Source: an uncultured Rhodospirillaceae bacterium
Lineage (GTDB): Bacteria > Pseudomonadota > Alphaproteobacteria > UBA8366
Assembly: GCA_964408805.1 (NCBI GenBank)
Contig: CAYPAV010000001.1
Span: 408,779-472,778, forward strand
Length of the DNA stretch: 64,000 nt
Direction: 5' to 3'
In this document: positions 52,971 to 64,000 of the stretch, one piece after another
Numbering within the stretch: the first letter of the stretch is position 1
Layout of the letters: each line of letters begins with the position of its first letter
Translations under genes and position numbers: made by a program
The notes under the pieces: model-generated
What the model saw: only the letters and a program-made list of their open reading frames with translations
Told to the model about the DNA's origin: nothing
Databases searched by the model: none

Positions 52971-54149
52971 TCAAATAGATGTGACCTTTCGCGCCACCAT
53001 ATCCTCGATCGCGGCGGGGTCGTAACCGTGCGCCGCCAAAATCTCCTCGCTGTGCTCGCCGATCCCCGGTGAATGGGCCAGGTCGTTCTGCTGATCGAAC
53101 GGCGTTAGGCCCGGCACGTTCGGCACCGGAACGCGGCCGACACCGGGATGATCGAGCCAGGAGATCAGCCCCGTTGCCTTGACCTGTGGATGTTCGAGGA
53201 ATTCGAGGTAGCTGTTGACGCGCTCGTGCATGATCCGCGCCTCGATCAGCTTCGCCGACAGTTCCTCACAGGTCTGCCGTTTGAAGGCCGCGCGAATGGC
53301 CGGCATGATCTCGGCCTCGTGTTCCAGTCGTTCGGCATTGGTGCCGAAGCGGGGATCGCTGCCGATCTCGGGAATCCCGAGCAGGTCGCAGAGCTTCGGA
53401 AATTCCGCATCGCGGAACATCAGGATGGTGATGTAACCGCCGTCCTTGGCCTCGATCACGCCATAGGGCACGCGGCCCACCATATAGGCGCCCTTGGTGA
53501 GATGGACCATCATCATGCGAACGGCGCCGAGACAGGCCGCGCCCTGCATCAAATTGGTCTCGATCAGGCAGCCCTTGTCCTCGGATTGCCGGGCGTAAAG
53601 CGCCGCCGAGAGCGCTTGAAAGGCATAAAGCGCAGTCGCCATGTCGCAGATCACGACGCCGATCCGGTGCGGCAGACCATCGCCGCCTTCATTGACCGAC
53701 ATCAGTCCCGTGAAGGCCTGCAGCACCGGGTCCATGGCCGGGCGCTCGCGGAACGGGCCCGTCGTCCCGAATCCGGAGACCGAAAGATAGATCGCCCGGG
53801 GGCTAATCTTCGCGACCTCTTCGTATGAAAAGCCGAGGCGCTCGGTGACCCCGGGGCGGAAGTTCTCGATGAAGACATCGGCGTCCTCGATCAGCCGGCG
53901 AAGCGCCGCCTTGCCGCCTTCTTCCTTCAGGTCGAGCGAGATCGCCCGCTTGCCGAGATTGGCGGCAACCGAGAAGGCTGAGTGATTGTCGTAATCCTGG
54001 CTGATGAACCGGCCCCACTCGCCGTCCAGCGGTTCGACCTTGATCACCTCGGCGCCGTATTGCGCCATCAACATGCCCGCATAAGGGCCGGATACCCCCT
54101 GGCTGATATCGATGACCTTCAGCCCCGCAAAGGGTGCTTCGTAACCCAT
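52971..54149 (-). CDS. CoA-transferase family III (CaiB/BaiF-type)
   Basis: 392 aa with LKVIDISQGVSGPYAGMLMAQYGAEVIKVEP, ENFRPGVTERLG and the catalytic-Asp region VVICDMATA. Confidence 0.88.
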   Translation of the reverse strand: MGYEAPFAGLKVIDISQGVSGPYAGMLMAQYGAEVIKVEPLDGEWGRFISQDYDNHSAFSVAANLGKRAISLDLKEEGGKAALRRLIEDADVFIENFRPGVTERLGFSYEEVAKISPRAIYLSVSGFGTTGPFRERPAMDPVLQAFTGLMSVNEGGDGLPHRIGVVICDMATALYAFQALSAALYARQSEDKGCLIETNLMQGAACLGAVRMMMVHLTKGAYMVGRVPYGVIEAKDGGYITILMFRDAEFPKLCDLLGIPEIGSDPRFGTNAERLEHEAEIMPAIRAAFKRQTCEELSAKLIEARIMHERVNSYLEFLEHPQVKATGLISWLDHPGVGRVPVPNVPGLTPFDQQNDLAHSPGIGEHSEEILAAHGYDPAAIEDMVARKVTSI

Positions 54150-54252
54150 GATTCGAACTCGCTGCCCTGTTCTCGGTGCCTCAATATGCTATATGCCTCT
54201 AGCGGAGGCGATGGCAATCGGGTCTTCGTTTCCGGAGCGGGAGAGTGCCGGC

Positions 54253-55449
54253 ATGGACTTGCAGTTTTCCAACGAACACAGCGACTTTCAGCGCGAGGTC
54301 CGCGACTTCATTGAGGCGAAGCTGCCGCATGACATTCGCGACAAGGTCGCGCGCGGCCTGAAGCTCCACAAGGACGATTACGTGCGCTGGAACAAGATCC
54401 TGCATGAGAAGGGTTGGAGTGCCCCGGCCTGGCCAAAGAAGTACGGCGGCGCCGAGTGGAGCGCCGTTCAGCGCTATATCTTCGAGGAAGAGACCGCCCG
54501 CGGCCATTGTCCGCGTCTGATCGCCTTCGGCCTCACCATGGTCGGTCCGGTGATCTACACCTTTGGCAGCGAGGCCCAGAAGGAACGCTTCCTGCCGCCG
54601 ATCCTTTCGGCCGAGACCTTCTGGTGTCAGGGCTATTCCGAACCGGGCTCGGGCTCCGATCTCGCCTCGCTGCAAACCAAGGCGGTGCGGGACGGCGACC
54701 ACTATATCGTCAACGGCCAGAAGACCTGGACCACGATGGCGCAGATGGCGGATTGGATCTTCTGTCTGGTCCGCACCTCCAGCGAAGGCAAGAAGCAGGA
54801 GGGTATTTCCTTCCTGCTGATCGACATGAACACGCCGGGGGTCGAGGTCCGTCCGATCATCACCATGGATGGCGCCCACGAGGTCAACAGCACCTATCTC
54901 ACCGATGTCAGGGTGCCGGTCGAGAACCGCGTCGGCGAGGAGAACAAGGGCTGGACCTATGCCAAGTTCCTGCTCGGCAACGAACGGTCGGGGATCGCCC
55001 GGGTTGGCGCCTCGAAGGCCCGGCTCCAGCGTCTGAAGGAAATCGCGACGGTGGAGAAGTCGGGCGGGCGGCCGTTGCTCGAGGACAGCGACTATCGGCG
55101 CCGGATCGCCGATGTGGAGATCGGCTTGAAGGCGCTCGAATATACCGAACTTCGTTTCCTGATGGCCGCCGCCGCCGGCAACGAGCCGGGTGCGGAGGCC
55201 AGCATGCTCAAGATTCGCGGCACCGAAATCCAGCAGGAGATTTCCGAGCTTCTGATGAAGGCGATGGGTATCTACGCCCAGCCGCATTTGCCGGAAGCGA
55301 TGGAATACGGTTGGAACGAGGATGCCATCGGACCCGAGGCGACCCCCGTCGCCACGCCGACCTATCTCAATATGCGGAAGACGTCGATCTACGGCGGTAC
55401 CAACGAAATTCAGAAGAACATCATGGCCAAGATGGTGCTGGGGCTCTAA
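54253..55449 (+). CDS. Acyl-CoA dehydrogenase family protein
   Basis: Start at ATG 54253 (GGGAGAG upstream), 398 aa. Blocks WCQGYSEPGSGSDLASL, GQKTWTT and C-terminal IYGGTNEIQKNIMAK. Confidence 0.88.
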   Translation: MDLQFSNEHSDFQREVRDFIEAKLPHDIRDKVARGLKLHKDDYVRWNKILHEKGWSAPAWPKKYGGAEWSAVQRYIFEEETARGHCPRLIAFGLTMVGPVIYTFGSEAQKERFLPPILSAETFWCQGYSEPGSGSDLASLQTKAVRDGDHYIVNGQKTWTTMAQMADWIFCLVRTSSEGKKQEGISFLLIDMNTPGVEVRPIITMDGAHEVNSTYLTDVRVPVENRVGEENKGWTYAKFLLGNERSGIARVGASKARLQRLKEIATVEKSGGRPLLEDSDYRRRIADVEIGLKALEYTELRFLMAAAAGNEPGAEASMLKIRGTEIQQEISELLMKAMGIYAQPHLPEAMEYGWNEDAIGPEATPVATPTYLNMRKTSIYGGTNEIQKNIMAKMVLGL

Positions 55450-55482: not shown

Positions 55483-56616
55483 ATGGACTTCTCGCTTACC
55501 GAAGAGCAACAGCTTCTCAAGGACAGCGTCGACCGCTTCGTGCGGGAGAACTACGAATTCGAGGACCGGCGCAAGCTGGCCGCGACGACGGAAGGGTATA
55601 GCGAGGAAAATTGGAAGCAGATGGCGGAACTCGGCTGGCTCGGCGTTGCCTTGCCCGAGGAATATGGCGGCATCGGCGGCGGCGCCACCGAGATCATGGT
55701 GATCATGGAAGGCTTCGGGCGCGGCCTCGTGCTGGAACCGTTTTTCGCCAGCGTCGTGCTCGGCGGCAATCTGATCGTCGAAGCCGGGAGCACTGCCCAG
55801 AAGGAAGATCTGCTGCCGAAACTCGCCGATGGTGGATTGAAGCTCGCCTTCGCCTATGCGGAGCGCCAGGCCCGGTTCGACCTGTTCGATGTCGCCACCA
55901 CGGCCGAGAAGGTTGGCGACGGCTATGTCCTCAAGGGCGACAAGGGGGTCGTCTTCGGGGCCGGAACGGCGGATAAGATCATCGTCTCGGCGCGGACCTC
56001 CGGCGGCCAGCGCGACACGGACGGCATCACGCTCTTCCTGGTCGATAACGATGCCGATGGGTTGGAGCGGCGCGACTACGCCACTAACGACGCCGGCCGC
56101 GCTTCGGAGGTCTCGCTCAATGGGGTCAAACTCGGTGCCGACGCGGTGCTGGGTACGGTCGGCGACGGCTATGCGGCGATCGAGGCGGTGGCCGAAAAGG
56201 CGGTCGCGGCCCTTTGCGCCGAAGCGGTCGGCTGCTTCGATGTGCTCAAGGAAGAGACCAATGAATACCTGAAGACCCGCGAGCAGTTCGGCCAGCCGAT
56301 CGGCAAGTTCCAGGTGTTGCAACATCGCATGGTCGATATGCTGATCAATTGCGAGGAAGCCCGTTCGATGTGCTACGTCGCGACCGCCATGGTCGACAGC
56401 GACGACGCGGCGGAGCGCGCCCGCTCGATCGCCGCCGCGAAGGCGCAGATCGGCAAGAGCGGCCGCTTCGTCGGGCAGAACGCCATCCAGCTACATGGCG
56501 GCATGGGCATGACCGACGAGTTGAAGGTCGGCCACTACTTCAAGCGCGCGACCCTGATCGACCTCACCTTCGGCGACCAGGATCATCACACCAAGCGCTT
56601 CGCCGAGATGACCTGA
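55483..56616 (+). CDS. Acyl-CoA dehydrogenase family protein (second, adjacent paralog)
   Basis: 377 aa with MDFSLTEEQQLLKDSV, KFQVLQHRMVDM and IQLHGGMGMTDE blocks. Confidence 0.88.
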   Translation: MDFSLTEEQQLLKDSVDRFVRENYEFEDRRKLAATTEGYSEENWKQMAELGWLGVALPEEYGGIGGGATEIMVIMEGFGRGLVLEPFFASVVLGGNLIVEAGSTAQKEDLLPKLADGGLKLAFAYAERQARFDLFDVATTAEKVGDGYVLKGDKGVVFGAGTADKIIVSARTSGGQRDTDGITLFLVDNDADGLERRDYATNDAGRASEVSLNGVKLGADAVLGTVGDGYAAIEAVAEKAVAALCAEAVGCFDVLKEETNEYLKTREQFGQPIGKFQVLQHRMVDMLINCEEARSMCYVATAMVDSDDAAERARSIAAAKAQIGKSGRFVGQNAIQLHGGMGMTDELKVGHYFKRATLIDLTFGDQDHHTKRFAEMT

Positions 56617-56641
56617 CCGGCGGCGGCCTCAGTGCCGCCGG
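56617..56641. terminator. Hairpin between convergent ACAD and hsp20 genes (8-bp GC stem)
   Basis: CCGGCGGC (56617-56624) pairs with GCCGCCGG (56634-56641) across a 9-nt loop that contains the hsp20 stop. There is no U-tract, so function is uncertain. Confidence 0.25.
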
Positions 56642-57060
56642 ACCGGGATCTTCAACGCCGGCTCGGCGCCGTTGGCCCGTTTCGGCACCTTGATCGTCAG
56701 CACGCCGTCGGTGAAATTGGCGCCGATCTTTTCGGGCGCCACATCCTCGGGAATGCGGAACGACCGGTGGAAGGTGCCGTATCGCCGTTCGGAGAAGTAG
56801 AATGTCTTACCCTTCTCCTCATGGGCGGTGCGCTTCTCGCCCTTCACGGTCAGGATATTGTCCTTTAATTCGACCATGATGTCGTCTTCCGAGATTCCCG
56901 GCAGCTCCATATTGATTTCATAGAAATCGTCGGTTGCCGCCGCATCGGCGGAAGGGGCGAAGAAGTCGGCGATCTTGTCGCCCAACTGCTTCATGGGGTC
57001 CATGACATGCGGCCAGAACCCCGTCTCGTGACCGGCCGCGGTATGCGTTTTTTCGACCAT
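56629..57060 (-). CDS. Hsp20/alpha-crystallin family small heat-shock protein
   Basis: 143 aa with an alpha-crystallin domain containing INMELPGISEDDIMVELKDNILTVKGEK...RRYGTFHRSFRIPEDV...GVLTIKVPK. Confidence 0.9.
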   Translation of the reverse strand: MVEKTHTAAGHETGFWPHVMDPMKQLGDKIADFFAPSADAAATDDFYEINMELPGISEDDIMVELKDNILTVKGEKRTAHEEKGKTFYFSERRYGTFHRSFRIPEDVAPEKIGANFTDGVLTIKVPKRANGAEPALKIPVRRH

Positions 57061-57149: not shown

Positions 57150-59108
57150 TTAAAGCACTAGGCCCAGCAGATGGCCACCCTGGATCGCCGACATCAGGTC
57201 GCGGGGCGACTGGCAATCGCCGATGCGGTGGGTGGCGACCCGCCCCTCGAGGTCCTGACTCAATTCGTCCCGGGCGATGCGCGGCGTGGCATGGATCACC
57301 CGCGCAATGTCGTCGATCACGCGGGCATCTTCGGTAAAGACGTTGCGGAGGGTCACGGTGCCGTCCCGGTAATCGGTCAGGTCGTGGGCGGGGAGGATTT
57401 CGACACCCGCCTGATGCAGCCGGCGATGGACGCCGATGGCGCTGCAATAATTCACGTTCCGGGCGATCTCGGGGCGTGGTGTGGCGAGAACGACGCCGGC
57501 ATGGCGGGCCGCAAGCAGATCCGCGATGCCGTAAACCGTCGGGCCATGGTCCATGTCGAAGAGAAGGGCGCGTTCCGACCTCGATGAGGACGTTTCGTCG
57601 GCCGCGATATAATCCCGCGCATCGATCACGGGATCTGCGTTGTCGACGAGGTTCGGCGGCCGGCGCGATCTCGCACCGGTGGCCAGAACCACGATATCGG
57701 GCGCTTCGGCCAGCAGCGCCACCGCCGCAATTCGCGCGCCCAACCGGAAGGTTACACCCGCCGCTTCCGCCATCCGCCGTTGATAGTCGATGATCCCCGC
57801 CATGGCGCTCCGTCCCGGAAGCCGGGCGTCGAGGCGAAGGTTCCCGCCGGGCTCTTCTCCGGCCCCGAACAGGATCACCGCGTGACCGCGCGCCGCCGCA
57901 ACCCAGGCGGCTTCGAGCCCGGCCGGCCCGGCGCCCACGACCAACACGCGGCACGGTGTTTCCGTCGGCGTCAGGCGGGTTTCAGCCTCGGCTTCACCAT
58001 TGGTTCCGAGGTAAGGGTTGTGATGTTCGGCAAGCGGTTTGCCCATATGCACCTCGCCCCAGCACCAGTTGTCGAAGACGCTTGGGCGAATGGTGTCGGA
58101 CCGGCCAGCCTCGGCCTTTCGCGGCCAGGCCGCATCCGCGATCAGCGCCCGTGTGGTACCGACGAGGTCACCATAACCCTCCGCCACGACCTTTTCCGCA
58201 AGATCGGGCGTGCCGATGCGGCCAAGGGCGATCACCGGCACGCCTTTCGCCGCCGCCCGCATGCGCTTCGGAATATCGATGAAATGACCGGGCCGGAAAT
58301 GAAGGTCCGGCACGTGGGTTTCCAGGCTGAGACTGAAATTGCCCTGACCGTAGGCGAAATAGTCGAAATCCCCACTCCCCGCGAGATGGCCAGTCAGGCG
58401 CGCCGCTTCTTCCACGTCGATGCCGCCGGGAACGCCTTCATCCCCCGGCATCTTCAGGCCGACAATGAATCCCGCCCCGCAGTGCGCGCGGATGCCGCCC
58501 GCGATCTCCCGGGCAAAGCGCGCGCGGCCTTCCAGGTCGCCGCCATATCGATCAGTGCGCGTGTTCGACCAGGGGGAGAGGAACTGACCGATCAGATAAC
58601 CGTGCGCGCCGTGCAGTTCCACGCCGGCGAAGCCACAGCGATGGAGGCGTTCGGCGGTCGCGACATAGGCGGCGGCGATCCGTTCGATCTCGTCCGCCGC
58701 CATGACGTGCGGCACGGTCCAGCTCAAGGCGTCGGGCAGGTCGGAGACGCCCATCGGCGACTTGGTCGGATGCCAAAGCTGCTGGCGGCCGGGATGCCAG
58801 AGCTGGCCGACCAACAACCCGCCCGCTTCCTCGACGGCCTCCGCCGTTCGCCGGAATCCCTCCTCGTTGGTGGCGTCGAAGCCGGTGACGATCGCCTGCT
58901 GGGCCAGGGCTTCCGCGTCGACCGCGATGATCTCCGACACCAGCAGTCCAACACCGCCCTTGGCGCGTTCGACCAGAAAATTCGTCCAGCGATCGGTGAC
59001 CTGGTTGGCCCGGCCGTAATTGGTCAGTGTCGCCGGTAGGACCGTGCGGTTTCGTACCCGCCGGCCGGCGATTTCGATCGGCGAGAAGAGCCGCGGGTAG
59101 GGAGACAT
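57150..59108 (-). CDS. Two-domain flavin oxidoreductase: N-terminal Old Yellow Enzyme TIM barrel + C-terminal FAD/NAD(P)-binding domain (FadH/NADH-oxidase-like architecture)
   Basis: 652 aa with LFSPIEIAGRRVRNR, VELHGAHGYLIGQFLSPWSNTRTDRYGG (OYE) and VLVVGAGPAGLEAAWVAAARGH (Rossmann). The inter-domain segment reads IRPSVFDNWCWGEV, where relatives carry a multi-Cys Fe-S motif. Confidence 0.85.
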   Translation of the reverse strand: MSPYPRLFSPIEIAGRRVRNRTVLPATLTNYGRANQVTDRWTNFLVERAKGGVGLLVSEIIAVDAEALAQQAIVTGFDATNEEGFRRTAEAVEEAGGLLVGQLWHPGRQQLWHPTKSPMGVSDLPDALSWTVPHVMAADEIERIAAAYVATAERLHRCGFAGVELHGAHGYLIGQFLSPWSNTRTDRYGGDLEGRARFAREIAGGIRAHCGAGFIVGLKMPGDEGVPGGIDVEEAARLTGHLAGSGDFDYFAYGQGNFSLSLETHVPDLHFRPGHFIDIPKRMRAAAKGVPVIALGRIGTPDLAEKVVAEGYGDLVGTTRALIADAAWPRKAEAGRSDTIRPSVFDNWCWGEVHMGKPLAEHHNPYLGTNGEAEAETRLTPTETPCRVLVVGAGPAGLEAAWVAAARGHAVILFGAGEEPGGNLRLDARLPGRSAMAGIIDYQRRMAEAAGVTFRLGARIAAVALLAEAPDIVVLATGARSRRPPNLVDNADPVIDARDYIAADETSSSRSERALLFDMDHGPTVYGIADLLAARHAGVVLATPRPEIARNVNYCSAIGVHRRLHQAGVEILPAHDLTDYRDGTVTLRNVFTEDARVIDDIARVIHATPRIARDELSQDLEGRVATHRIGDCQSPRDLMSAIQGGHLLGLVL

Positions 59109-59115
59109 GCTTCGC

Positions 59116-59484
59116 TCAGGTATCGCGCGCGCGCCGGGCCGCCTCGAGAACCGCCTCCGTTACCCGGACCGGCAGGGTTAAGGCAAGAAAGGACAGCGCC
59201 TTGCCGTGCCCGTCGAGATTGAGGCTGCTGTTGACCCCGCCCTGCAGCACGTCATCGAGGACAAAATTGAACGCCGCCAGCTTCGGCAGGTCGTAGCGCA
59301 CCGCCCGACTGGCGCCGCGATGGGCGAAGACCTCCAGCATCCGCGCCTCGGTCGCCTGCTCGGCGATCGGCGCATAGCCGCTGGGGTCATAGGGGATGAT
59401 GCTGACGTTCAACCGGTCGCCCTTGTCGCCGGTGCGGCCATGGGCGATTTCGTAGAGCGGGACTTCGACGGTGGCCTCAGTCAT
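59116..59484 (-). CDS. DUF4387-like small protein (partner of AtuA/DUF1446 proteins)
   Basis: Start at ATG 59484, overlapping the DUF1446 gene end by 8 nt. 122 aa, beginning MTEATVEVPLYEIAHGRTGDKGDRLNVSIIPYD. The rest of the 199-aa ORF is a spurious upstream extension. Confidence 0.7.
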   Translation of the reverse strand: MTEATVEVPLYEIAHGRTGDKGDRLNVSIIPYDPSGYAPIAEQATEARMLEVFAHRGASRAVRYDLPKLAAFNFVLDDVLQGGVNSSLNLDGHGKALSFLALTLPVRVTEAVLEAARRARDT

Positions 59485-60856
59485 CGCCGGCCTCGACCAG
59501 GCCGACTTTCGCCGAGACCGCGGCGCGCGGGACCAGGCAGGACCCGGTCTTGACCCGCCAGGTGGTCGAGCGACGAACGCCGGCCCCGCCCGCGGGACCG
59601 CTGCAATAGAGCGATTCGACCTCGCGCGCCACCAGGGCGGCGGTCGCCTCGTCGGCCGCATTGGCAGCGACCCGAAGGCGGACATCCTCGGGTGTTTCGG
59701 CGTCGAATGCGGCATTCAAGTCGCCGCTATCGCCGTCGAAGACGCTGACCGTGCCGATGAGGTCGGTCCGGAGATCGCAATCGAGCCCCAACACCTCGAC
59801 TCGTTCCTTCATGGTCTTGGCCGCCAATTGCGCGCGCGCCAATGCGTTCCGGCCGGCATAGGAAATCTCCCCCTCGCCGAGCCAGCCGCCATCGACGCTG
59901 ACCGTGGTCTTCAAGGTCTCGGGCGCGGGCCGACCCTTGGCGCCATGGATGCGGACCCGGTCCGGCCCGACCGCTTCGACCTCGACCTCGGAAATGTCCA
60001 AGGTCACATCCGGGGTCAAATAGGCGCGGGGATCGGAAATCTCGTAGAGGATCTGCTCCTTCACCGTTCGCGTGTTCACGACGCCGCCGGTGCCCTCGGG
60101 CTTGGTGACGATGAAACTCCCGTCCGGCTCCACTTCGGCGATGGGATAGCCCATCATGGCCATGCCGGACACGTCTTTCCGGCCGGGGTCGGCGTGGTAG
60201 CCGCCGGTGACCTGGGCGCCGCACTCCAACACATGACCCGCCAGGACGCCCGCCGCCATTAGGTCCCAATCGTCGTCGGCCCAGCCGAAATAATGCATCA
60301 AGGGCCCTAGGGTGAGGGCGGAATCGGTGACCCGTCCCGTGACCACTACATGGGGATCGAGAGCCAGCGCATCGGCGATCGGCCGCGATCCGAGATAGAC
60401 GTTGGCGGCGATGATCTCGGTATTGGCGAGGTCGAGCTGAACCTCTTCCTCCCAGGCCTCGGTCTCGATCCCGCGGATGCGATCGCGCAGGTCGTCGCCC
60501 TCGACGACCGCGATCCGGAGTCCCTCTATCCCGAGTTCTTCGGCGAGCCGGTGCAGCCGTTTCGCGGCACCGCGCGGGTTGGCGGCGCCGAAATTGCCGA
60601 TGATCGGCACACCGCTCTCGACACAGCGCCGCAGGACCGGGCCGAGGAACCCCGCGAGGTCCGCGGTATACCCCGCATCCGGGTCGGATTTCCGTTCCCG
60701 CTGGGCGATTGCGAGGGTGCGTTCGGCGAGCGTCTCGTAGCCGAGCGCCGCCGGCACGCCGGCCGCGATCAGGGCGTCGGCCACGGGCGCGCCCACATCC
60801 ATCCGATCGTTGGCGAAGCCGGCAGCGTTGCCGATGTGAACCTTGGGTGGAGTCAT
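59477..60856 (-). CDS. DUF1446 / AtuA-like (acyclic terpene utilisation protein A family) protein, biochemical function unknown
   Basis: 459 aa. N-terminus IGNAAGFANDRMD, plus YETLAERTLA, GANPRGAA and TGRVTDSALTLGPLMHYFGW blocks as I remember for this family. Confidence 0.75.
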   Translation of the reverse strand: MTPPKVHIGNAAGFANDRMDVGAPVADALIAAGVPAALGYETLAERTLAIAQRERKSDPDAGYTADLAGFLGPVLRRCVESGVPIIGNFGAANPRGAAKRLHRLAEELGIEGLRIAVVEGDDLRDRIRGIETEAWEEEVQLDLANTEIIAANVYLGSRPIADALALDPHVVVTGRVTDSALTLGPLMHYFGWADDDWDLMAAGVLAGHVLECGAQVTGGYHADPGRKDVSGMAMMGYPIAEVEPDGSFIVTKPEGTGGVVNTRTVKEQILYEISDPRAYLTPDVTLDISEVEVEAVGPDRVRIHGAKGRPAPETLKTTVSVDGGWLGEGEISYAGRNALARAQLAAKTMKERVEVLGLDCDLRTDLIGTVSVFDGDSGDLNAAFDAETPEDVRLRVAANAADEATAALVAREVESLYCSGPAGGAGVRRSTTWRVKTGSCLVPRAAVSAKVGLVEAGDD

Positions 60857-60860
60857 ACTC

Positions 60861-61700
60861 TCAAACCTTCTTCTTGGCGGCGCCGACAGCGAAATCCTGG
60901 CAGGTCAGGCCGGCGCGCAAGCCCCAAAGCCGCGCCGTCTCATTGATATGACTTACCACGCCGCTCTCCCAAAGCGAGCGGGCGTCGCCGATCCGCGCCG
61001 TCTTACCGTCGATCACCGCCCCCGCGATGCCCTTGTCGTCGAGCAGCGGCAGGCGGCTGAGCCCGGCCTGGTCTCGGCCGATACCGGCGTCATGGAAGAC
61101 CGCCGCCTTTACGGGCTGGTAGATGGCGGTGCCGCTCGCCCGGTTGGCCGCCAGCACGCCGCCGTGCGAGCCGGTGATGACGATCCGCCCGGCATCCTCC
61201 GGGATCAGGAGGGAGGCCGAATCGAGACCCCAGACCTCCGGCTCGCCGGGCTCGGCGCGCAGCTTGTAGCGGGCCTCCTCGAACGGGTCGGGCGCCATCG
61301 TCGCGACCGGGCCGAGGCGCATCTTCCGGGCGGCCTCCAGGGCCGCTTCCCCGACGGCGCAGCCGAGCGCCCCCGCCGCCTTGTTGGTATAGCTGACGAT
61401 GCCGCGCTGGATCATGTCCTCGCCGTCGCCGATGCGGCCCGTCATGTGCGCGATCGTCGCCGCCGCGATGCCGAAGGCGTCCAGGTAATCGAGGCTGGCG
61501 ATCCCCGCCTTATCCTTGCCGATCCCCGCATCGTTCAGGATGACGCCCCGCGCCGCCGCCTTGGCGATCAGATAACCGGGATAGACGCCGCCATGGCTGC
61601 CGGCCACGATGACGGAATCCTCATGCTCGGGCGCCGGTTTGGTGACCGTATCGAGCACCCAGATCGGCACGTCGTCGTCGGAGGCATTGCGGCCGGCCAT
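60861..61700 (-). CDS. Unknown-function protein built from two tandem copies of a ~120-aa domain (GSHGG / DAGIG[KR]D / RIGD motifs)
   Basis: 279 aa. Half 1 (IWVLDT...VIVAGSHGGV...ILNDAGIGKDKAGIASLDYLD..GRIGDGEDM..GIVSYTN) aligns by eye with half 2 (VWGLDS...IVITGSHGGV...VFHDAGIGRDQAGLSRLPLLD..ARIGDARSL..GVVSHIN). AAGGAG SD upstream. The stop lies 4 nt before the DUF1446 ATG. Confidence 0.65.
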   Translation of the reverse strand: MAGRNASDDDVPIWVLDTVTKPAPEHEDSVIVAGSHGGVYPGYLIAKAAARGVILNDAGIGKDKAGIASLDYLDAFGIAAATIAHMTGRIGDGEDMIQRGIVSYTNKAAGALGCAVGEAALEAARKMRLGPVATMAPDPFEEARYKLRAEPGEPEVWGLDSASLLIPEDAGRIVITGSHGGVLAANRASGTAIYQPVKAAVFHDAGIGRDQAGLSRLPLLDDKGIAGAVIDGKTARIGDARSLWESGVVSHINETARLWGLRAGLTCQDFAVGAAKKKV

Positions 61701-61735
61701 TTTCCATGGGCTCCTTGTTCGGAATTGACCCCAAA

Positions 61736-61767: not shown

Positions 61768-62793
61768 CTAATCCACTTTGATCAGCAGCTTGCCGGTATT
61801 CTCGCCGCGATAGAGCATTTCGATGGCGCCGGGGGCGTGGTCCAGCCCGTCCAAGATATGTTCCTGGTAGGTCAGCTTTCCGTCGCGCACCCAATCGGCC
61901 AACTTGTCGATCGCCTCGCCGTAGCGATCGATGTAATCGAACAGCAGGAACCCCTGCATCCGGGCGCGCTTGACCAGCAGATGGCGATGTACCCGGGGGC
62001 CGGCGGGCCAAGGCACCCAATCGGCCACCGACGCGGTTCCGCAGATCGAAATCCGCGCGCCCATCGCCAAATGTTCCATCACCGCGTCGCTGATCGGGCC
62101 GCAGGTATTGTCGAAATAGACATCGACCCCGTCGGGGCAGGCCGCGCCGATCTCCCGGACCAGATCGCCGCCGCTCTTGTAGTCGATGGCCGTGTCGTAG
62201 CCGAAGCTCTCGCGGCAAAGCGCGATCTTTTCAGGCCCGCCGGCGATGCCGACGGTGCGGCAGCCGAGGATCTTTGCGATCTGGCCGACGCAGGATCCGA
62301 CCGAACCCGCCGCCGTAGAGACGACGACCGTCTCGCCCGCTTTCGGGTCGGTGATATCGATCAGGCCGAAATAGGCGGTGACCCCGTTCACCCCCAGGAT
62401 GCCGAGCGCCAGTGAGATCGGCAGGTCCGTCTCCCGCACCTCGCGGGTGACGCTCTCTCCCGTGGCGGCCGCGAAGCGCTGCCAGCCGAACATGCCGGCC
62501 ACGATGGCCCCTTCGGCGTAATCCGGGTTGCGGGACGCCACCACCTCGCCCACGGCGAACGACCGCATGACGTCGCCGACCGGGACGGGTGGGGAATAAT
62601 TCGGCGCGTCGTTGACCCAGCCCCGCATCGCCGGATCGACCGAAAGAAAATGATTGTGGACGAGGATTTCGCCGTCCGCGAGCTCGGCGACCGGTGCCTC
62701 CTCGACCCGAAAATGGCCGGGGGTCGGCACCCCTTTCGGGCGGTCGGCGAGAACGACGCGCCGGTTGACCAGATTGGCGGGATCGACGGTCAT
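61768..62793 (-). CDS. NADP-dependent oxidoreductase, MDR superfamily (alkenal/one or enone reductase-like, zinc-independent)
   Basis: 341 aa with ETVVVSTAAGSVGSCVGQIAKILGCRTVGIAGG (AxxGxxG) and C-terminal LYRGENTGKLLIKV, typical of the YncB/CurA/leukotriene-B4-dehydrogenase subgroup. Confidence 0.85.
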   Translation of the reverse strand: MTVDPANLVNRRVVLADRPKGVPTPGHFRVEEAPVAELADGEILVHNHFLSVDPAMRGWVNDAPNYSPPVPVGDVMRSFAVGEVVASRNPDYAEGAIVAGMFGWQRFAAATGESVTREVRETDLPISLALGILGVNGVTAYFGLIDITDPKAGETVVVSTAAGSVGSCVGQIAKILGCRTVGIAGGPEKIALCRESFGYDTAIDYKSGGDLVREIGAACPDGVDVYFDNTCGPISDAVMEHLAMGARISICGTASVADWVPWPAGPRVHRHLLVKRARMQGFLLFDYIDRYGEAIDKLADWVRDGKLTYQEHILDGLDHAPGAIEMLYRGENTGKLLIKVD

Positions 62794-62805: not shown

Positions 62806-64000
62806 TCAGGCGGCGAGCAGCTCCGCGGATTTGGCCCGCGCCGCCGCCGCTTCTTCATTCGCCTCCGCGGCATCGAGCGCATCCGCATAGAGCGCCCAGG
62901 AGGGGCCGCTCGTCGGATTGACGGTTGTGCGCTCGGCCAGGAGGGCACGGGCAAGACTGTCCCGACCGTCCTTGATCGCCGCATGGATCAGCATCCGCAC
63001 CCAGACATCGCGCTGTGCGTGGCTGCCGCCGAGCGGCACCATGCGATAACGCGTATCCATCATGATCTCGATCACCCGGGCGTAATCACGGTCGGCATGG
63101 GCGAGAATCGCTTCGGCGACCGGAATGCCGGCATTGCGATAGACGCCGGCGACCGTCACGGCGTCGCCCGGATTGTCCGCGGCGAAAGCGCGCATCGAGG
63201 CCAGCATCTCGTCCGCTTCCGCGCGCCGCCCAGAGAGGGCCAGCGCCATGATGTAATGCAGATCATTGAAGGGGCGAAGGCGGTGGTCTATGCGGCCGGC
63301 GGAAATCTCCGCGACCGGTTGCCAGCGGTCGCCCACATCGAGCCCCAACATATCGAGACGCATCAGCATGCCGGCCGCGTTGCAGATATCGGTGTTGTCT
63401 TCCGAGGGCTCGGCCCAGAACTCCTCGTCGAAGGCGGCCATCACCTTGTCGAATTGTTCCAGCTCCAAATAGCAGAGTGCGCGGTGCCACCACATATGAT
63501 GCGCGAAGAGGCCGCGTTCGCGCCAGACCGCCTGGTGTTCGTCGACCCAGTTCATGCCTTCCTGGCGGCGGCCCTGCATCTCCAATACGTGGGAGACCGC
63601 GTGGCCGGCCCAAATGTCCTGCTCGTTGATCTCGACGGCGCGCTTTCCGATCGGCTCCGCCGCCGCGTATTCTCCGTTCTCCTCCAAGGCAAAGGACCGG
63701 CAGCCGAGCACGAACCCGTAGCCCGGCATCGACTCGTCCCAGCGCGGCATCACGCGGGCCGTCGAATCCCGCATCAGTGGCAGATCGCCGATGAAGAAAT
63801 GCAGGAAGTTCGCCAGCTTGATCGCCAGGATATCATGCGGGTGATCGACCAGGATCGCATCCCAGATAGCGTTGGTCCGCCGCAGATCGCCGGCGCACCA
63901 GGCGCCGAGAGCGGCCACATGCATCCGTTCACGCTCGCTGCCCTGATCGGCCATGGCTTCCGCCTTCGCAAGGGCGTCGAAGCTCTGCTCGGTCAGATGG
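62806..64000 (-). CDS. Tetratricopeptide-repeat protein, TTC38-like (N-terminus outside the window)
   Basis: The frame stays open upstream of ATG 63954 to the window edge (..HLTEQSFDALAKAEAMADQG..). Helical repeat protein with RERMHVAALGAW..W.AILVDHPHDILAIKLA, as in the TTC38 family. Confidence 0.65.
   Translation of the reverse strand, partial: HLTEQSFDALAKAEAMADQGSERERMHVAALGAWCAGDLRRTNAIWDAILVDHPHDILAIKLANFLHFFIGDLPLMRDSTARVMPRWDESMPGYGFVLGCRSFALEENGEYAAAEPIGKRAVEINEQDIWAGHAVSHVLEMQGRRQEGMNWVDEHQAVWRERGLFAHHMWWHRALCYLELEQFDKVMAAFDEEFWAEPSEDNTDICNAAGMLMRLDMLGLDVGDRWQPVAEISAGRIDHRLRPFNDLHYIMALALSGRRAEADEMLASMRAFAADNPGDAVTVAGVYRNAGIPVAEAILAHADRDYARVIEIMMDTRYRMVPLGGSHAQRDVWVRMLIHAAIKDGRDSLARALLAERTTVNPTSGPSWALYADALDAAEANEEAAAARAKSAELLAA

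Follow-up and report, generated by a model that had tools for sequence, protein, structure and literature searches.

One of the closest described counterparts of the operon considered here is the citramalate lyase of Raoultella, which, expressed from cmlAB, is described as converting citramalate directly to pyruvate and acetate by a route independent of coenzyme A (CoA) (2026 preprint, 10.64898/2026.01.16.699985). The PDB entries 9erq and 9evf carry the molecule names 'Acyclic terpene utilization AtuA family protein' and 'Citramalate lyase, subunit A (cmlA)'. A DUF1446 gene without known function adjoins a methylaspartate ammonia-lyase gene (PMC4682846). Literature searches on DUF1805, YunC, DUF4387 and AtuA yielded no functional data on YunC or on the gene that is the subject of this study. 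This gene, here called X, lies directly in front of an AtuA-family gene in a stretch of 64,000 nucleotides from an uncultured Rhodospirillaceae bacterium (contig CAYPAV010000001.1, positions 408,779 to 472,778; the whole stretch is referred to as the window). X represents a genuine, conserved protein family that has no name and whose structure is predicted with confidence; it is a worthwhile target for enzyme discovery rather than a demonstrated new mechanism. The gene and its parts are:

60861..61700, minus strand: gene X, 279 amino acids (aa), two tandem alpha/beta domains of ~125 residues, uncurated family
61293..61679, minus strand: N-terminal repeat of X, residues 8-136; invariant in the family are T20, S35-H36-G37, D57-A58-G61, I90-G91 and N106
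60864..61253, minus strand: C-terminal repeat of X, residues 150-279; invariant in the family are W157, D160-S161, S178-H179-G180, D204-A205-G206, R216, I237-G238 and S242
61587..61601, minus strand: GSHGG loop of repeat 1, residues 34-38, a strand-turn-helix junction in the model
61158..61172, minus strand: GSHGG loop of repeat 2, residues 177-181
61711..61716, minus strand: Shine-Dalgarno sequence AAGGAG of X, 10 nucleotides (nt) 5' of the ATG, read from the sequence

X is a genuine cytoplasmic protein of ~30 kDa, which arose by internal duplication of an alpha/beta domain of ~125 residues. A BLASTP comparison of residues 1-140 with residues 141-279 gave 45 identities in 129 positions (35%, E = 4e-24). 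The Smith-Waterman score of half against half was 192, compared to 32.4 +/- 5.8 (maximum 63) for 2000 shuffles (z = 27.6). This self-alignment confirms the two tandem domain copies postulated in a first-pass annotation made from the sequence alone. The four motifs named there are present in both halves as well, namely GSHGG (residues 34-38 and 177-181), DAGIG[KR]D (57-63 and 204-210), RIGD (89-92 and 236-239) and G[IV]VS[YH] (100-104 and 247-251). The claim that the halves align without gaps is slightly too strong: an indel of 4 residues (2 residues in most relatives) separates GSHGG from DAGIG, and a second indel is located close to the C-terminus. The Shine-Dalgarno sequence and the distance of 4 nt between the stop codon of X and the start of AtuA (60856) were found as first described. 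A scan for promoters and terminators was uninformative, promoter-like sites being absent and terminator-like sites occurring at chance level.

A word-indexed search of clusters at 90% identity returned 2495 homologues of X. Their names are absent or 'hypothetical', except for one which is called YunC by the Joint Genome Institute (JGI). With the X profile, an exhaustive search of 1.84 billion cluster representatives (50% identity) yielded 1513 sequences at E <= 0.001, of which 420 reach E <= 1e-30. Almost all of the best 150 of these 1513 representatives are 260-290 aa long and matched end to end, and no single-domain relative of half the size was detected among them. With one genome per GTDB species, 504 stretches code for a relative of X; the species-level locus counts given below rest on the best 80 of them. 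Nearly all of these 80 loci stem from metagenome-assembled genomes, predominantly of Alphaproteobacteria, with some Poribacteria, Eremiobacterota, Latescibacterota, Burkholderiales and Gammaproteobacteria. In cultured organisms, homologues at 28-43% identity are encoded on plasmids of Haloterrigena, Haloarcula, Natrinema, Rhodococcus, Rhizobium leguminosarum, Aminobacter, Methylovirgula and Ponticoccus.

Among 92 distinct sequences, 40 positions are conserved to at least 97%, whichever enzyme is encoded next to X. These include S35-H36-G37, D57-A58-G59-G61 and I90 as well as S178-H179-G180, D204-A205-G206 and I237-G238. The GSHGG, DAGxG and RIGD motifs are kept in both halves family-wide, and when both halves are combined in a profile, S, H, G, D, A, G, G, I and G are invariant. 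Homologues linked to AtuA and those linked to a thiamine diphosphate (ThDP) enzyme are only about six conservative substitutions apart. Among the remotest homologues Tyr or Asn takes the place of H36, and Gly or Ala that of S178; the residues of catalytic type in the loops that remain unchanged are S35, H179 and D204 (H179 and D204 at 28-42% identity). Because of this difference the two repeats cannot be regarded as equivalent.

One distant homologue, from plasmid pAA02 of Aminobacter aminovorans (L115 6794-7747, 317 aa), has a signal-peptide-like N-terminal extension (MNRRIFLGSSALLVVSLL...ALAQA), suggesting that this family member is periplasmic. Two long forms, P0183 (566 aa) and P0160 (372 aa), were considered as fusions and rejected; their N-terminal extensions are devoid of a detectable domain and look like mis-called starts.

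The AlphaFold2 model of X, built from an alignment of 30 sequences, reached a mean predicted local distance difference test value (pLDDT) of 95.5 and a predicted template modelling score (pTM) of 0.91. It is a single compact protein of two lobes, in line with the pseudo-dimeric fold proposed beforehand. In the model each repeat starts with short N-terminal strands, after which come three units of strand, loop and helix: strand 30-36, the GSHGG loop and helix 39-47; strand 52-56, the NDAGIG loop and helix 62-74; strand 79-83, the RIGD-containing loop and helix 93-99. A strand (101-105) and two short helices form the tail. The conserved loops are located at the C-terminal ends of consecutive strands and at the N-termini of the helices. 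In alpha/beta proteins, ligand and active sites are usually found at the C-terminal ends of strands, and glycine-rich loops in front of helices represent the classical geometry for binding of anions and phosphate. The modelled position of the glycine loops is consistent with the earlier suggestion that they are candidates for a ligand site. A comparison of the model with the PDB by Foldseek, the one structural library searched, gave no significant match.

The two genes following X in the window are:

59477..60856, minus strand: AtuA-family gene, 459 aa (Pfam PF07287, E 1.8e-135)
59116..59484, minus strand: AtuA_ferredoxin-like gene, 122 aa (Pfam PF23544, E 4.9e-30), overlapping the end of AtuA by 8 nt

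The AlphaFold2 model of this AtuA (pLDDT 88.7) matches chain A of 9evf, the 'Citramalate lyase - ADP - pyruvate complex', over the whole chain (Foldseek E = 6e-24, TM scores 0.71/0.72) at only 16% identity. Sequence searches of the PDB miss this likeness altogether. AtuA is a full-length structural homologue of CmlA, and the AtuA_ferredoxin-like gene is the probable counterpart of the second subunit gene. By analogy with CmlAB, the two products very probably form a Cml-type hydroxy-acid lyase, acting either independently of CoA or on a CoA ester. Its substrate probably differs from that of CmlA because of the low identity of 16%. The Raoultella enzyme is expressed from two genes, with nothing resembling X, and X is dissimilar to both subunits; neither by sequence nor by fold was an X-like chain found in the PDB, including the characterised Cml. 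We infer that X lies outside the minimal Cml-type enzyme. A mechanical list of open reading frames (ORFs) gives 199 aa at 59116-59715 (minus strand, ATG at 59715) for the AtuA_ferredoxin-like gene; gene calls on identical contigs and the homologues favour the form of 122 aa starting at 59484.

Homologues of X at 62-69% identity retain the order X-AtuA-AtuA_ferredoxin. These loci usually have a divergent gene of the vicinal oxygen chelate (VOC)/glyoxalase type upstream (11 loci) and a 3-hydroxy-3-methylglutaryl-CoA (HMG-CoA) lyase-like gene downstream (12 loci), with MR_MLE and TauD genes nearby. In the reverse test, starting from AtuA, X was directly upstream in 11 of the 11 metagenomic AtuA loci at 74-78% identity for which upstream sequence was available. 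At 71% identity (L106) X is again located upstream of AtuA and is itself preceded by genes for an aldehyde dehydrogenase and for succinyl-CoA-synthetase (SCS)-like beta and alpha subunits. No X was found beside AtuA relatives at 63% (L107), 57% (L108, Roseomonas) and 34-36% identity (L103, L104). A neighbour-joining tree, which left out the later collected L106, places 13 distinct X sequences linked to AtuA in a clade that contains no others. One X at 64% identity (L013) follows SCS-like genes and has no AtuA downstream. The window itself contains neither a second copy of X nor a ThDP or E1 partner.

In the wider family a different partner prevails. The directly downstream ORF on the same strand encodes a three-domain ThDP enzyme (TPP_enzyme_N/M/C, ~583 aa) in 35 of 74 species-level loci and AtuA in 2. 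Of 80 loci searched by BLAST with reference proteins, 53 have an ALS (acetolactate synthase)-like ThDP enzyme within ~3 kb of X; E1 alpha was detected in 52 of the 80, E1 beta in 51 and AtuA in 2. Typically, E1beta-E1alpha are divergent from X and the ThDP enzyme gene, the gap between the latter two being mostly -4 to +25 nt. The ThDP partner stays below all NCBIfam equivalog cut-offs (best the ALS large subunit, ~380 bits versus 538), and its closest solved relative is BbmA (E 5e-70). This module of four genes, E1beta-E1alpha/X-ThDP, recurs in L004, L006, L008 and about 50 further loci, and no E2/E3 genes were seen nearby.

Further recurrent neighbours of X are short-chain dehydrogenases/reductases (SDRs; 17-18 loci), TauD (9), old yellow enzymes (OYE; 8), dehydratases of the UxaA/GarD type (8) and family III CoA-transferases (7). 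On plasmids of Haloterrigena (L111 7989-11526) and Haloarcula (L112 6944-10498), X stands in front of the genes of a RuBisCO-like protein and of a DUF1537 'four-carbon acid sugar kinase'. A tripartite ATP-independent periplasmic (TRAP) transporter, an HpcH-type aldolase, an SDR and an IclR regulator are encoded in these clusters too, suggesting a function in the catabolism of acid sugars. A divergent VOC-type gene, annotated as such only in Haloterrigena, precedes X in both. On a plasmid of Rhodococcus WAY2, X precedes the genes of an OB-fold (DUF35-type) protein, an AMP-binding enzyme, a thiolase and an enoyl-CoA hydratase. In Aminobacter a CoA-transferase, HMG-CoA lyase, RraA, VOC and X are found together, in R. 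leguminosarum a valine-type acyl-CoA cluster has an SDR and X at its end, and the copy in Ponticoccus is isolated. In 12 loci none of the partner enzymes that vary between lineages is encoded nearby. The initial view of X as 'probably a stoichiometric partner' of AtuA accordingly fits one subclade with strict synteny (at least 71% identity) but not the rest of the family (AtuA 2/80, ThDP 53/80).

The association of X with C-C lyases is an informative genomic link. Since the same conserved core precedes at least four structurally unrelated C-C enzymes, and sometimes none, X does not appear to be a dedicated AtuA subunit; and since its relatives usually adjoin several unrelated C-C bond-cleaving enzymes, it is more likely to be an independent enzyme than a permanent subunit of AtuA. 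The most economical explanation is that the coupling of X and lyase is metabolic rather than structural. We favour, with a probability of roughly 45%, the view that X works by itself as an enzyme or a ligand-binding protein, with a site made of conserved glycine loops, and either supplies a C-C lyase or acts after it. The step catalysed by X, or else the type of ligand that it binds, would be constant, and the adjoining C-C lyase would have been exchanged during evolution: CmlAB-like AtuA and AtuA_ferredoxin in the window, a ThDP, RuBisCO-like or thiolase/DUF35 enzyme elsewhere. X may act on a small carboxylic acid, a CoA ester or a phosphorylated acid which is the substrate or product of the neighbouring enzyme. 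The conserved loops would form the functional site, probably a single composite and asymmetric one between the repeats. A contribution of both repeats is suggested because the glycine-rich loops lie at strand ends, A-G-S-H-G-G is elbow-like and S35, H179 and D204 are retained asymmetrically.

Several points weigh against this preferred reading. As neither an activity nor a ligand nor a functionally characterised homologue of X was found, the term enzyme is derived from the conservation pattern and the gene context. The tight gaps (4 nt to AtuA; -4 to ~+25 nt to the ThDP gene) would also fit a physical complex, and in nearly all lineages X is the leading gene of the pair. Foldseek against the PDB detected neither an alpha/beta hydrolase nor another enzyme fold, the alpha/beta-hydrolase matches are far under the Pfam thresholds, and the proximity of S35, H179 and D204 is conjectural.

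In a more far-reaching version, which we regard as rather doubtful, X founds a new enzyme family with a pseudo-dimeric alpha/beta fold not described before. A predicted composite Ser-His-Asp-type site across the two repeats (S35 with H179 and D204) would act on labile tertiary-hydroxy or beta-keto carboxylic acids, in a step obligatorily channelled into the following C-C lyase of the Cml, ThDP, RuBisCO-like or thiolase type. Isomerisation, hydrolysis and acyl or phosphoryl transfer would be candidate steps. For the preferred reading, a parallel is offered by the nucleophile elbow of the alpha/beta hydrolases. When 32 X half-domains were scanned against families at E <= 1, 7 weakly matched Abhydrolase_6 and 7 UPF0227, in the nucleophile-elbow region, and 10 gave weak matches to DUF1805. 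S35 aligns with the catalytic Ser of the hydrolase motif G-x-S-x-G-G (for example G-T-S-L-G-G of 3bwx), and the elbow pattern Sm-x-Ser-x-Sm-Sm is present in A33-G34-S35-H36-G37-G38 at the end of strand 30-36, in front of helix 39-47. The likeness extends over the A-G-S-H-G-G strand-turn-helix and the subsequent helix and hydrophobic strand ending with N-D-x-G. On the other hand, the X domain has about five strands compared to eight in alpha/beta hydrolases and lacks the Ser-Asp-His order along one chain, the best half-domain E value of 4e-4 is far under the family threshold, and no alpha/beta hydrolase occurs among the Foldseek matches.

Alternatively, X could be an obligate third subunit, an activator or a chaperone of the downstream lyase, i.e. 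of AtuA/AtuA_ferredoxin in the window and of the ThDP enzyme elsewhere. This would explain the short distance to AtuA, the presence of X upstream in all 11 AtuA loci at 74-78% identity and in the one at 71%, the exclusive clade of AtuA-linked X sequences and the position immediately before the ThDP enzyme gene in 35 of 74 loci. We nevertheless consider it unlikely: the partners (AtuA, ThDP, RuBisCO-like, thiolase/DUF35) are structurally unrelated, yet the core of X is constant; citramalate lyase is made from cmlAB alone, and the PDB holds no X-like chain by sequence or fold; AtuA at 57-63% identity occurs without X, and some X genes occur without such a neighbour. IlvN/IlvH, the regulatory small subunit of ALS, is like X a small two-domain protein encoded beside an ALS-type ThDP catalytic subunit. 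X differs from it in being located upstream and not downstream of the catalytic gene, in occurring also beside enzymes unrelated to ALS and in having no similarity to ACT domains; no ACT-family match was obtained with the whole protein at E <= 10 or with the half-domains at E <= 1.

X might also be a ligand binder without catalytic function, such as an effector sensor, a nucleotide- or phosphate-binding protein or a phospho-histidine carrier using the S-H-G-G loops. Three glycine-rich loops ahead of helices and an invariant His beside the elbow would suit this function. The CmlA homologue was crystallised with ADP, genes of an ADP-forming CoA ligase adjoin X in L013 and L106, and the haloarchaeal clusters include the DUF1537 kinase. 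The chances of this alternative are nevertheless reduced, and we think it improbable, since H36 of repeat 1 is exchanged for Tyr or Asn in distant homologues and the half-domains give no match to nucleotide-binding, phosphotransferase system (PTS) EIIA or Ligase_CoA families even at E <= 1.

A relationship to DUF1805 (PF08827) was the only marginal family assignment obtained. Scans with Pfam and NCBIfam gave no model at threshold for X of the window, and searches of PDB sequences with X, the family profile and the half-domain profile resulted in chance-level matches only (DinB E 0.02, asparaginase E 0.39), so that together with the Foldseek result the earlier statement that X fits no characterised family was substantiated. 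DUF1805 scored 15.0 bits (E 0.031) on residues 71-127 of X, below the gathering score of 29.5; on a few homologues it reached 30-33 bits in two stretches, just above that score. The match falls in the C-terminal ~55 residues of each repeat; their strand-helix-strand-helix-helix order and their sequence pattern (..RIGD..M...G.IS.VN..A..LG...GM) show a faint likeness to the C-terminal part of YunC. Foldseek aligned X with 1qw2 (TA1206 of Thermoplasma acidophilum) over 58 residues, with a root mean square deviation (rmsd) of 2.3 Å and a probability of 0.54. Differences are evident in the architecture, YunC being a single domain of ~100 residues and X a tandem pair of ~125-residue domains, in which, by eye, an extra strand-loop-helix unit bearing DAGxG seems to enlarge the repeat. 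The YunC signature G-Y-x-M-C-G ... R-x-x-G-V is missing from X, just as SHG, DAG and RIGD of X are missing from YunC, and hhalign of the half-domain profile against a genuine YunC/TA1206 alignment gave a probability of 13% over the last 27 columns only. Because of this low probability and the mutual absence of the motifs, any kinship of X with the DUF1805 tail appears to be very remote, X having been duplicated and enlarged; at best it would be a distant derivative of that superfamily by duplication. That X is simply a tandem DUF1805/YunC protein sharing the role of YunC is hence quite improbable. The homologues above the gathering score, the JGI name, the partial match to 1qw2 and the weak matches of 10 of 32 half-domains speak for it. 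The low score of X itself, the hhalign result, the lack of G-Y-x-M-C-G and the restriction of the match to the C-terminal part of each repeat speak against it.

Residues ~87-160 of X and the homologues P0102, P0024 and P0269 locally resemble the palm of Y-family DNA polymerases (Pfam IMS), with up to 35 bits in some homologues. The PDB entry for DinB, 6jum, was matched at E 0.022, and 30-residue Foldseek matches to pol eta had an rmsd of 1.7 Å. An assignment of X to the Y-family polymerases (IMS, PF00817) was rejected, the match being local (~30-75 residues) and X of the window having no IMS match. The likeness probably reflects a shared strand-helix-loop-helix motif (..G.IS.VN..A..LG...GM..) and not homology.

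It is extremely improbable that the X ORF is an accident of GC-rich DNA or an annotation error: numerous long spurious ORFs in other frames do overlap the region, but this reading is refuted by the conservation of length, start and motifs in thousands of bacterial and archaeal homologues, besides identical calls on independent contigs and the model pLDDT of 95.5.

With ~1,500 clusters at 50% identity, distributed over Alphaproteobacteria, Poribacteria, Eremiobacterota, Actinomycetes and haloarchaea, the X family is large and has no curated model, name or structure. It is embedded in catabolic clusters for C-C cleavage, including those of the recently recognised AtuA/Cml-type lyases. Once assigned, the activity of X would close a recurrent gap in pathway reconstructions of marine and soil bacteria and could clarify the substrates of the orphan clusters of ALS-like enzymes with E1 alpha/beta and of the haloarchaeal RuBisCO-like/DUF1537 clusters. 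Cultured hosts are R. leguminosarum WSM2304, Haloterrigena, Haloarcula and Rhodococcus. X homologues in three of them are RLEG2_RS31475 of R. leguminosarum WSM2304, JMJ58_RS22930 of Haloterrigena and GFS60_RS32620 of Rhodococcus WAY2.

The X-AtuA-AtuA_ferredoxin genes of the window are flanked in the same direction by two oxidoreductase genes:

57150..59108, minus strand: OYE/FadH-like FMN and FAD/NAD oxidoreductase, 652 aa, the next gene after AtuA_ferredoxin
61768..62793, minus strand: enone reductase of the ADH_N_2/zinc-ADH type, 341 aa, 67 nt upstream of X

The OYE-type gene is kept after AtuA_ferredoxin in L011, L098 and L100. Its product in the window best matches 'mycofactocin system FadH/OYE family oxidoreductase 2' (487 bits versus a cut-off of 793). 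The ADH_N_2 reductase was found upstream of X only in contigs identical to the window. Further upstream, an ORF of 382 aa (62806-63954, minus strand) has a sub-threshold match to TPR_14 (22.7 versus 23.5 bits). On the other side of the operon, an HSP20 gene (56629-57060, minus strand) and two adjacent acyl-CoA dehydrogenase genes (54148-55449 and 55483-56616, plus strand) are located, and on identical contigs a family III CoA-transferase gene lies past these genes. The acyl-CoA dehydrogenases and the CoA-transferase suggest CoA-ester chemistry around the operon.

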